Source of the DNA: Candidatus Thorarchaeota archaeon | Lineage (GTDB): Archaea > Asgardarchaeota > Thorarchaeia > Thorarchaeales > Thorarchaeaceae | Assembly: GCA_003345545.1 (NCBI GenBank) | Contig: PRDH01000039.1 | Coordinates: 32,001-96,000 of the forward strand | DNA: 64,000 nt | Direction: 5' to 3' | Shown: in pieces, positions 61,281 through 63,966 of the stretch | Layout: every line of letters begins with the position of its first letter | How positions within the stretch are numbered: the stretch's first letter is position 1 | Program-made: the position numbers and the translations under genes | Notes under the pieces: generated by a model | What the model was told of the DNA's origin: nothing | The model's input: the letters and a program-made list of their open reading frames with translations, nothing else | Databases searched by the model: none

Positions 61281-61697
61281 CTATTCTCGTGGCGGCTTCG
61301 GTATCTCAGTCAAGGTGATAATATCCTCAATCCATTTCGCCAGTTCTTGCCCAATAGACTCAATGTACTGCAGCAATGAGTCGGCGTATTTGGTCAGGTG
61401 CTGTTGTTCAAGACTCTTGGACTTCTCAGTGAATTCCTTGATTCGTTTTGGTAATCCTATTGACCATCTACCTGTCGTCAATTCTGCTTTTCTATCACTG
61501 AGGACCTTCTTGGCGACTCTCTTCTTCCGACTAAGGTCAACAAGCTCTTCCAGCAACTTTTGAACCGCGATGGTTGCTGCTACTAACCCCTTGGCATCTA
61601 TCTTAGATTCCTTGTCTCTGCTCGTATAGTAAACTTGCTTTAGATCTCTCTTGGCAGCAACTACGTTGGCGAGGAGTTTCAATAATTCGTGAGCCAT
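61281..61697 (-). CDS. hypothetical alpha-helical protein
   Basis: 138-aa ORF with a TTTATA box about 27 nt upstream and a GGAGG motif. Confidence 0.7.
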   Translation of the reverse strand: MAHELLKLLANVVAAKRDLKQVYYTSRDKESKIDAKGLVAATIAVQKLLEELVDLSRKKRVAKKVLSDRKAELTTGRWSIGLPKRIKEFTEKSKSLEQQHLTKYADSLLQYIESIGQELAKWIEDIITLTEIPKPPRE

Positions 61698-61751: not shown

Positions 61752-62414
61752 TCAGACAGCTGAGTAATTGCATTCTCCACTTGTGGAAAATGGGCATACT
61801 GTGCACTTGGTTTCGCTAGGCGATGCTCTAGGGAGCCGCTTGTTGTACCAGACTTCATCAAGCCTTTTCAGATGCATACGAATCTCATCAGGATTGAATT
61901 TCCTCTTGAAGACTCTCGCATCTCCACAGTTCCAGCAGTTTCTTCCTAGTTTGTCTTGAAGGCACTGCTTCGCAGTGTCCTGAAGACAATACACAGTGAC
62001 AAGTCTGGCTAATCTACACGAGACTCCACTCTCCGCCAAGGCAAGCGAATACAGCCCGGCCTGAAAGAGGTCCTCCGGTTTCATCTTGCTCGGCAGGCGA
62101 TTAACTGGGAACTTGTGCTCAATCAGCGCGTCTAGAATCGGAACGTCGTCCCAATGCAGAACTGCACCATCAAGCCTGCCAATGAACCGGTGAGCAAATG
62201 ATCTCACCTGCTCTTCGCTGAACAGATAATACACGCCTCTATTGCGCTGACTTGGCCGCAGTGAGAGAAACTCGGTAAGGCTCAATGGCGCTCTCTTGGC
62301 CTTCTTGACGGACGACCAAACCGGACCTAGACTGAAGCTGGATCTCCCAAGTGATAATATGGAGACAATTATGATGAGAAGCGTGAATACCAGTATGCTC
62401 AACAGTTGTTGCAT
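61752..62414 (-). CDS. Cas4/RecB-like PD-(D/E)xK nuclease, C-terminal part, with N-terminal TM helix
   Basis: GRLD, IEHK, QAGLY, C-terminal KCTVCPF....C. Confidence 0.8.
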   Translation of the reverse strand: MQQLLSILVFTLLIIIVSILSLGRSSFSLGPVWSSVKKAKRAPLSLTEFLSLRPSQRNRGVYYLFSEEQVRSFAHRFIGRLDGAVLHWDDVPILDALIEHKFPVNRLPSKMKPEDLFQAGLYSLALAESGVSCRLARLVTVYCLQDTAKQCLQDKLGRNCWNCGDARVFKRKFNPDEIRMHLKRLDEVWYNKRLPRASPSETKCTVCPFSTSGECNYSAV

Positions 62415-62418
62415 TTCA

Positions 62419-62679
62419 TCACCATACTATCCAAATGATTCCAAGGACCACTACTGCAATTATCCCAAAGATCGGCATCCATTGAGTGCCTCCTGGTTCA
62501 TGAGTCCTTATTGTGGACACTAGATTATGAAGCATCGTGCCATCGATGCTTGCTTTACTGACTGCGTTACTCTGCCTTTGCGTTAGATAGAATCTGTACT
62601 CACATAGGAATTGAGTTCTGAGTTCAGAAACCTCTCTGAATCTCGAGAACGACGTTCGTTCATCTTCAGTAAGCCGCAA
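62419..62679 (-). CDS. Cas4-like nuclease N-terminal part with C-terminal TM helix
   Basis: VSEL...FLCEYRFYL......ASIDGTMLH, then hydrophobic IFGIIAVVVLGIIWIVW. Confidence 0.7.
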   Translation of the reverse strand: MRLTEDERTSFSRFREVSELRTQFLCEYRFYLTQRQSNAVSKASIDGTMLHNLVSTIRTHEPGGTQWMPIFGIIAVVVLGIIWIVW

Positions 62680-62833: not shown

Positions 62834-63256
62834 ATGTCAGAGGATTCCTATGAAGGAGCAACAGCTGGAAGAGTACTCGTGTTTGGAAGTAGTGGATCCG
62901 TGAAATTCCCAACTGCTTTCAAGAATGCGATGGGAACAGATCGCGGCTTGATGGTGCTCGTGCATAAAGATCGACTCATCAAAATTTTCCCTCTAGATAG
63001 TGACGAGGTGCTCTTCTTGAGTCTCGAAATTGGAAAACTCAGCAACGACTTCCTCACAAAGCTATCCCAAATCTTCAAGAGAGCTGGTCTTGTAGATCTC
63101 TTGTTCTCTACAGGTGTCTGTCTTCGAGGAACGAGGTGTTTCTACGAGTGCTATTTCAATCCGAGTCAACTCAGTTCCGATACGAATGAGCTTGAGAGTT
63201 CTCTGAAAGTTCTTGATGGAGTTCAGAGAGTTCTGATTCAGAAGGTAGAAGTATAG
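62834..63256 (+). CDS. AbrB/SpoVT-like swapped-hairpin domain fused to ACT-like domain (putative regulator)
   Basis: GSSGSVKFPTAFKNAMG; C-terminal ACT-like pattern ending LKVLDGVQRV. Confidence 0.6.
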   Translation: MSEDSYEGATAGRVLVFGSSGSVKFPTAFKNAMGTDRGLMVLVHKDRLIKIFPLDSDEVLFLSLEIGKLSNDFLTKLSQIFKRAGLVDLLFSTGVCLRGTRCFYECYFNPSQLSSDTNELESSLKVLDGVQRVLIQKVEV

Positions 63257-63285: not shown

Positions 63286-63966
63286 TTGATTCCGGGTGTA
63301 TTCTCCTTGCAGGACATCATTCTCTTCATAACCGACATGATTAGTCAGGGGTATCTGGGACTTCTCATCATATGTTTCATGATTAACATGATTCCCTTCT
63401 TGAGCCCCAGCAACATGGTTCTTGCAGGGGCAGCAGTACTACTACTCCCGAGCTTCAATCCCTTCATTGTTGGGTTTGTGGTGGCAATATCCGCCACAAC
63501 TGCGAAACTTGTACATTTCTACGTCGTTCGTGGATCTCGTATGGTCCTGTCGCAAGAACGTCTAGCATCTCTTGACTCAGAAAAAAAGAGAGTCGAGAAA
63601 TGGGGCCCTCTTGCTCTCTTTATTGCCGCGGCTTCTCCGGTACCTGACGATCCACTCATTGTATATGTTGGGCTTGCCAAGTATAGCTCTGTGAAGTTCC
63701 TATTCAGTTATTTTACTGGAAAAGTGATTGTGACAACCCTGGGTGCACTGATAGGATACGGTGTCGGTGGCTATTTTGAGTCCATGCCCATCGTGTTAGC
63801 TTCAATTGCCCTGACTGCGTTGATTACGGGATTTCTGTGCAAGAGGAAGACTGAAGGAGAGTCATCTGACATGCTTCAGACTAATCTTGAAGCAGAGATA
63901 CATGATGACGATACGTCAGCTGATAAGGCGGCAGAATCGAATGATTCTGAGGAAGGCTCGGGATAG
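63286..63966 (+). CDS. DedA/VTT (SNARE-associated) family membrane protein
   Basis: GYLGL....F..N.IPF, SPVPDDP.....G, F......GK. Confidence 0.85.
   Translation: MIPGVFSLQDIILFITDMISQGYLGLLIICFMINMIPFLSPSNMVLAGAAVLLLPSFNPFIVGFVVAISATTAKLVHFYVVRGSRMVLSQERLASLDSEKKRVEKWGPLALFIAAASPVPDDPLIVYVGLAKYSSVKFLFSYFTGKVIVTTLGALIGYGVGGYFESMPIVLASIALTALITGFLCKRKTEGESSDMLQTNLEAEIHDDDTSADKAAESNDSEEGSG

Follow-up and report, generated by a model that had tools for sequence, protein, structure and literature searches.

A candidate membrane-tethered Exo5/Cas4-type nuclease divided between two adjacent genes in a family of Thorarchaeota

In nucleases of the RecB family, the catalytic metal is coordinated by the His of motif I, the Asp of motif II and the Glu of motif III. 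In Cas4, EXO5, AddB and Dna2, a [4Fe-4S] cluster is held by one N-terminal and three C-terminal Cys residues; Cas4 of CRISPR (clustered regularly interspaced short palindromic repeats) systems has this cluster and a RecB-type active site. In AddB, AdnA/B and Dna2, single-stranded DNA threads beneath the cluster-stapled arch. To our knowledge, iron-staple nucleases (Cas4, EXO5, Dna2 and AddB) occur as single soluble chains or domains, and a search of the literature found no paper on a split or membrane-bound Cas4 or Exo5. Here, we describe two adjacent open reading frames (ORFs), ORF A and ORF B, in a 64,000-nucleotide (nt) stretch of a Candidatus Thorarchaeota archaeon genome (GCA_003345545.1, contig PRDH01000039.1, positions 32,001 to 96,000; this whole stretch is referred to below as the window). 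We consider it quite probable that the two proteins form an obligate heterodimeric, membrane-tethered [4Fe-4S] nuclease of the Exo5/Cas4 type with a PD-(D/E)xK core.

The pair differs from each of the closest known systems. EXO5 (PF09810; human protein, PDB 7LW7) shares the fold and motif order of the pair (V-S/T-x-L..Q..CE, G..H, D, ExK, Q..Y, W..R.P...CxxC..C), but it is one soluble chain, whereas the A/B pair consists of two genes, each with a membrane helix, and has an extra motif of four Cys residues (Cys4). CRISPR Cas4 (PF01930; 4IC1, 8D3L, 7MI4) provides the best structural matches. The pair, however, is split and membrane-anchored and its genome has no match to cas1, although solo Cas4 genes do exist and would leave room for a Cas4-like mechanism, and its first-Cys motif is Q..CE, as in Exo5, rather than the C-P-R-K/R of Cas4. 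The iron-staple domains of AddB, AdnA/B and Dna2 share the fold class and cluster arrangement (Z 8-13), but form part of large soluble helicase-nucleases and are not known to be split at the staple. The closest relatives outside the family of the window's genome are unsplit Asgard Exo5-like proteins (e.g., a 260-amino-acid (aa) protein, L051:1501-2280), which match A and then B in colinear order and share their catalytic and cluster residues, but are single soluble ORFs with a patchy distribution and no Cys4 insert. The fold and chemistry are known; what we did not find in the literature is a family-wide split that parts the first cluster ligand from the other three and the His metal ligand from the Asp/Glu ones, combined with two anchors and an extra Cys4 motif.

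The gene pair, its predicted active site and its topology

ORF A (62419-62679, minus strand), the small subunit, encodes 86 aa, starts with TTG and ends with TGA. Its soluble part (residues 1-62) contains VSEL, C26 within QFLCEY, and G47 and H51 within DGTMLH. By hydrophobicity, it ends in a predicted membrane helix (residues ~66-86; 62422-62484, minus strand), a putative tail anchor with zero trailing residues, as the hydrophobic stretch reaches the last residue. At the junction with ORF B (GGTGATGAAATG; 62412-62423, minus strand), which reads TGG TGA TGA A ATG, the stop codon of A lies within GGTGA, a sequence resembling the archaeal Shine-Dalgarno (SD) core, and the ATG of B follows after a gap of 4 nt in the +1 frame.

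ORF B (61752-62414, minus strand), the large subunit, encodes 220 aa with a PD-(D/E)xK core recognized by alignment, an AlphaFold2 model, Foldseek and hhalign. Hydrophobicity and flank charge point to an N-terminal membrane helix (residues ~4-22; 62349-62405, minus strand) serving as an N-out/C-in signal anchor. It is followed by KKAKR (residues 37-41), G79-R-L-D82, I-E99-H-K101 and Q118..Y122, then by a Cys4 motif, C143-x7-C151-x8-C160-x2-C163 (61926-61988, minus strand), and finally by C204-x2-C207-x7-C215 (61770-61805, minus strand), three predicted [4Fe-4S] ligands that are invariant and align with EXO5 and the unsplit Asgard proteins. A preliminary description of this DNA had listed VSEL, a Cys in FLCEY, GTMLH and a terminal membrane helix for ORF A; a membrane helix, KKAKR, GRLD, IEHK, QxxxY and three C-terminal Cys for ORF B; and, between them, a double stop, a frame change and an SD-like GGTGA. 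All of these features are present as described; the Cys4 motif was absent from that account.

Residue invariance was judged in alignments of 44 sequences with identities down to 24% (A) and 35% (B). Six residues are invariant in ORF A (L20, Q23, C26, E27, G47 and H51). Of these, C26 is predicted to be the first [4Fe-4S] ligand, and H51, which forms motif I with G47, a metal ligand. In ORF B, the invariant residues D82, E99, K101, Q118, Y122, C204, C207 and C215 include those assigned by alignment to motif II (D82) and motif III (E99 and K101), which together with Q118 and Y122 make up five invariant residues of the predicted PD-(D/E)xK core, a core also recovered in fold matches reaching Z 12-16. 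Four Cys residues aligned to the cluster ligands of the unsplit relatives and EXO5 are therefore distributed over two polypeptides, C26 on A and C204, C207 and C215 on B. With the His and the first Cys on A and all the rest on B, a single chain could complete neither the metal site nor the cluster. The four Cys residues of the Cys4 motif are likewise invariant in B, and the aligned region of the unsplit relatives has no Cys at this position; the motif probably forms a zinc knuckle or holds a second cluster.

Membrane helices were located as the most hydrophobic 19-residue Kyte-Doolittle window in 48 loci carrying both genes (see below), and topology was read from the sequence. The ORF A helix has a mean of 2.63 in the window's protein and 2.2-3.2 across all 48 loci, and ends 0-3 residues short of the C-terminus in every locus. 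In ORF B, the most hydrophobic segment starts 0-10 residues past the N-terminus in all 48 loci, its N-terminal flank has zero or negative charge in 47, and 1-8 Lys/Arg residues occur within 20 residues after it. The basic flank of the window's ORF B consists of R24, K37, K38, K40 and R41. By the positive-inside rule, B would be oriented N-out, C-in, and the soluble part of A, a tail-anchored protein without a tail or signal peptide, would be cytoplasmic. The tail anchor of A and the flank charges of B thus suggest that both soluble halves are on the same, cytoplasmic face, in support of the location first proposed for them; this placement fits with cytoplasmic Fe-S assembly. An ArsA/Get3-type ATPase found in the genome was considered with regard to tail-anchor insertion, but tells little because the corresponding model matches in all 14 control genomes.

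Conservation and loss of the two-gene arrangement

When 400 genomes of the phylum were searched in six frames, ORF B turned up in 70 of the 85 genomes that belong to the family of the window's genome; outside this family, there was one weak match only (genome G052). We took 49 of these loci and located both genes with profile hidden Markov models (HMMs). In 48 of the 49, B is immediately preceded on its strand by a homologue of A, which is intact in 46; in the remaining locus (G395), the N-terminal part of A lies ~8 kb farther upstream on that contig. Twenty-six loci have a gap of 4 nt between the genes, and 14 a gap of 5 nt. Other junctions have overlaps (-1, -4, -10) or gaps of 1, 10 or 26 nt, and in one locus (L042) an in-frame stop is followed by 9 nt. 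The frame of B relative to A is +1 in 28 loci, +2 in 19 and in-frame in 1, and varies by lineage. In all loci, B has its own start codon (ATG, GTG or TTG) at a conserved position. A terminates with TGA in 44 of the 48 loci, and 35 of the 48 have GGTGA at the stop.

Pairwise ratios of nonsynonymous to synonymous substitution rates (dN/dS) are 0.09-0.25 for A and 0.12-0.26 for B, and the two genes evolve at similar rates. In an index of 5.8 billion proteins, ORF B has 68 relatives of about 185-243 aa, mostly 219-220 aa, and an exhaustive HMMER pass over 1.84 billion representatives returned 23 B relatives, the longest no more than 252 aa. A fused form of ~306 aa was found in neither protein set, though this size was within the searched length range. 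Eight indexed relatives of ORF A have 86-103 aa, and the A profile gave no match to longer proteins in a search that counts as weak evidence. We conclude that A and B are real genes under purifying selection. The conserved split, the varied frames, the separate starts of B and the low dN/dS exclude an assembly error or recent pseudogene, and make a conserved programmed frameshift very unlikely. The view that the window contains two deliberate genes is therefore borne out: rather than forming one continuous ORF, orthologues retain an intact pair in 46 of 49 genomes, and in two more A is broken by an insertion sequence (IS).

The pair is single-copy, and essentially all loci have the order aRF1, 138-aa gene, B, A, 140-aa gene and VTT-domain gene. 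This fixed position between the aRF1 side and the VTT-domain side, with PheRS also nearby, is occupied in at least 40 genomes. In genus g15 (three genomes, 96-99% complete) and in genome G317, the pair is absent and the flanking genes abut. In genus g16, the pair is decaying: A is IS-interrupted in G394 and G395, and B is lost in G392, with the flanking genes kept. A and B thus behave as one dispensable, vertically inherited module, and such behavior at a fixed core locus argues against CRISPR adaptation and, mildly, against a mobile defense island.

Further details of this decay were noted in g16. A remnant of ORF A (profile positions 2-49) persists at the syntenic site of G392 (C39, L087:2862-3059), where ORF B is gone, and captures ongoing loss of the pair. 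The element within A in G394 and G395 is mobile, with a TnpB-like zinc-ribbon C-terminus, and breaks A at about residues 36 and 70 (interrupted A loci L034:200-620 and L038:1700-2110; L082, G395:C355:237-440, and L083, G394:C145:886-990). In G395, the two parts of A are ~8.2 kb apart on one contig.

Family assignment and structure models

Neither ORF A nor ORF B alone passes the threshold of any Pfam or NCBIfam model, and the initial family assignment therefore needed independent testing. The single match outside the family, in G052, proved to be a single 260-aa ORF, with the A profile matching at its N-terminus and the B profile further along. This protein scores 36.9 bits with Pfam Exo5 (cut-off 25), passes PDDEXK_1, and is below the cut-off for Cas_Cas4 (19 vs 22.7). 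Used as a query, it identified about a dozen unsplit relatives, scattered patchily among four other Asgard families. Within the family of the window's genome, its only match is ORF B (E 2e-5 in this genome). All four unsplit relatives tested pass the Exo5 cut-off, with 36.9, 31.2, 26.8 and 27.2 bits.

Profile comparisons connect both halves of the pair to these proteins. In hhalign, residues 13-60 of A align with residues 24-70 of the unsplit profile (95.1% probability, E 3.4e-8), as expected if the small ORF corresponds to the nuclease N-terminus, and residues 77-220 of B align with residues 101-255 (97.7% probability, E 2.2e-12). The intervening region has ~30 residues in the unsplit proteins vs ~100 in the split family, where it includes both membrane helices, the gene boundary and linkers. 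The unsplit profile, in turn, matches human EXO5 with E 9.3e-10 over the first-Cys motif, G..H, D, ExK, Q..Y and CxxC..C, and Sulfolobus Cas4 (SSO0001) with E 0.63 only; every Cas4 scores far behind EXO5. Profile comparison thus supports homology of the pair to bona fide Exo5 members. The best PDB match of the B profile is EXO5 at E 0.09, and phmmer of B against PDB gave noise only. The fused relative (P0098, the two genes joined into one chain) scores 12.2 bits with Exo5 and 12.9 bits with Cas_Cas4, below the respective cut-offs of 25 and 22.7, and 22.0 bits with PDDEXK_1, right at the cut-off of 22.

By sequence, the nearest named family is Exo5 (PF09810) rather than CRISPR Cas4, and at the fold level the two tie. 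The designation Cas4-like Fe-S nuclease, used in the preliminary description, accordingly holds with regard to fold, but not with regard to the nearest sequence family.

Two observations concern the Asgard relatives themselves. Unsplit Exo5-passing proteins of 256-272 aa (L051:1501-2280, L052:1495-2262, L053:1489-2304 and L062:1447-2229) occur in at least four other Asgard families, and may bear on the origin of eukaryotic EXO5. In addition, proteins of ~542-560 aa (L054 and L056-L059, e.g., L056:646-2286:-) carry an N-terminal Exo5-like domain in which Ser replaces the first cluster Cys and His or Glu occupies the CxxC position; their ~290-aa C-terminal half has no Pfam match.

Structure models were built for ORF B alone and for a fused chain. 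The AlphaFold2 model of B has a predicted local distance difference test score (pLDDT) of 84.7 and a predicted template modeling score (pTM) of 0.72, and Foldseek placed type I-C Cas4 (8d3l) on top (E 3.4e-4), with MGME1, SSO0001, Dna2, AdnAB and EXO5 also matched. For the fused model, we used L042, the sole relative with in-frame genes, read through its TGA as a single artificial chain. Two alignments of the fused relative with all A and B rows (A5 and A8) were dropped because A rows landed on B; the alignment used (A9) has fewer B rows plus bridging unsplit sequences, and places the soluble parts correctly. The resulting model has a pLDDT of 85.4 (85-92 for the A part) and a pTM of 0.82. Long helices at residues 62-81 (A) and 87-107 (B) meet at the split point in what would be a membrane hairpin. 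The target-normalized TM-score to Cas4 rises from 0.42 for B alone to 0.60, with the match now extending over the whole chain. With VIA-align, residues 6..303 of the model match residues 5..203 of the Cas4 domain of 7mi4_A (Z 16.0), and further matches include 8d3l_I (Z 14.5), human EXO5 (Z 14.5; 187 aligned residues, 19% identity) and SSO0001 (Z 12.5). As modeled, the fused chain holds a complete Cas4/EXO5 fold.

Alternative explanations, proposed assembly and genomic surroundings

Two alternatives treat the split as only apparent. The ORFs are 4 nt apart in different frames, just as in a single Cas4-like gene broken here by a frameshift, whether through assembly error or recent pseudogene formation. 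The same layout, however, recurs across 46 independent assemblies, where the gap varies and the genes stand in three different frame relations; each B has a start codon of its own, dN/dS does not exceed 0.26 in either gene, and no relative of fused length exists among the proteins searched, so that this explanation deserves practically no credence. Programmed frameshifting or stop read-through, which would produce one polypeptide with an intact hairpin, is another option, since very few nucleotides separate the genes, A mostly ends in TGA, the L042 genes are in frame with one TGA and 9 nt between them, and the fused chain folds well in silico. Recoding would nevertheless need a constant frame, and the frame varies as given above; gaps range from -10 to +26 nt with no common slippery sequence, and the conserved start codon of B is preceded by the SD-like GGTGA in 35 of 48 loci. 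We regard recoding as highly improbable.

Two other alternatives accept the split and question its meaning. B might be a lone nuclease, cluster-less or stabilized by Cys4, or a non-catalytic DNA binder, and A an unrelated membrane protein. B alone does fold confidently, its four extra invariant Cys could stabilize it, it is seemingly intact where an IS disrupts A, and in some unsplit Asgard relatives the first cluster Cys is replaced by Ser. On the other hand, the invariant residues of the soluble part of A are exactly the Exo5/Cas4 first-Cys motif and the motif I G..H, A aligns to the N-terminus of unsplit proteins, with A added, the pTM increases from 0.72 to 0.82 and the match to Cas4 covers the entire chain, and the two genes are lost jointly in g15 and G317 and evolve at matching rates; independent functions are therefore quite unlikely. 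Finally, the pair might be a Cas4 of CRISPR adaptation or part of a mobile antiviral defense system. CRISPR Cas4 proteins head the list of fold matches, the fused relative gives a weak match to PADLOC Cas4 models (E 1e-4), and some Joint Genome Institute (JGI) records name homologues Cas4. Yet models of Cas1, Cas_Cas4 and Exo5 find no match in the genome (93% complete), which extends the reported lack of cas1 and a CRISPR array in the window to a genome-wide absence of Cas1 matches; PADLOC and PHROG have no matches to the window's own proteins; the pair, unlike defense islands, is single-copy at one fixed locus; and its nearest sequence family is Exo5. A role in CRISPR adaptation or mobile defense is accordingly quite unlikely, although a defense function unconnected with CRISPR retains some probability.

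Several points weigh against a heterodimeric nuclease. Neither ORF by itself reaches a Pfam or NCBIfam model, and the A profile retrieved from PDB only spurious matches to kinases and G-protein-coupled receptors. The complete fold was obtained with an artificial chain of the relative L042 and not with the window's own pair; in that model, A and B alignment rows are unpaired and the A membrane helix is misaligned. AlphaFold may also rebuild a known fold from solved structures, so that the model is no independent proof of binding. The apparently intact B in G394 and G395 suggests that B may be tolerated without A, at least transiently. In addition, all the evidence comes from one family of related genomes, and synteny among kin is no independent replication.

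A heterodimeric, membrane-tethered Exo5/Cas4-type nuclease nevertheless remains our preferred interpretation. Assembly of A and B in trans is suggested by the single-chain read-through model and by homology, and the conserved ligands suggest that the pair binds a [4Fe-4S] cluster. We propose that an ancestral single-chain Exo5-like gene gained a membrane hairpin of two helices, inserted after the motif I helix and ahead of the first core strand, and was then cut at the outward-facing tip of the hairpin. The small subunit left by such a cut would be tail-anchored and carry the first cluster Cys and the His of motif I; the large one would be signal-anchored and carry D, ExK, QxxxY, three cluster Cys and the Cys4 site. 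The two genes would be co-transcribed and translationally coupled via the stop within GGTGA, 4-5 nt ahead of the B start, and this tight coupling would supply A and B in step. With both soluble parts in the cytoplasm, the two membrane helices may pair in the bilayer and hold the halves together, and the catalytic metal site and the cluster would be completed only where the two subunits meet. If it acts like EXO5 and Cas4, the product would be a cytoplasm-facing, membrane-tethered 5'-to-3' exonuclease acting on single-stranded DNA.

Our best guess for its role is trimming of DNA 5' ends at the inner membrane face, on incoming or membrane-attached DNA, rather than CRISPR adaptation, although we would give no specific biological role more than tentative standing. 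A more doubtful idea is that the cluster serves as an inter-subunit clasp, with a DNA-threading ring assembled or opened at the membrane by cluster insertion or loss. If so, the pair would be an iron- or redox-gated exonuclease confined to the membrane, unlike single-chain Cas4, EXO5 and Dna2, and could load on single-stranded DNA without a free end or become active only where DNA crosses the membrane. The pair would also represent a natural split-enzyme experiment on the function of the cluster staple, and points to membrane DNA-end processing in Asgard archaea. Exo5 is otherwise a mainly eukaryotic family, and the apparent descent of the pair from archaeal members bears on how eukaryotic DNA-maintenance enzymes arose.

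The genes around the pair were also inspected. A 138-aa helical protein with no Pfam match is encoded 54 nt downstream of ORF B in the same orientation (61281-61697, minus strand). A functional link between this gene and the pair was considered and dropped, as the gene is a family-wide core gene that occurs in all 23 of the 23 high-quality genomes, even where A and B are missing. On the other side, divergent from ORF A, is a gene for a 140-aa protein without a Pfam match (62834-63256, plus strand), with 61-97% identity across the family. It is followed by a gene for a VTT/DedA-domain membrane protein (63286-63966, plus strand), and both are syntenic in nearly all loci.

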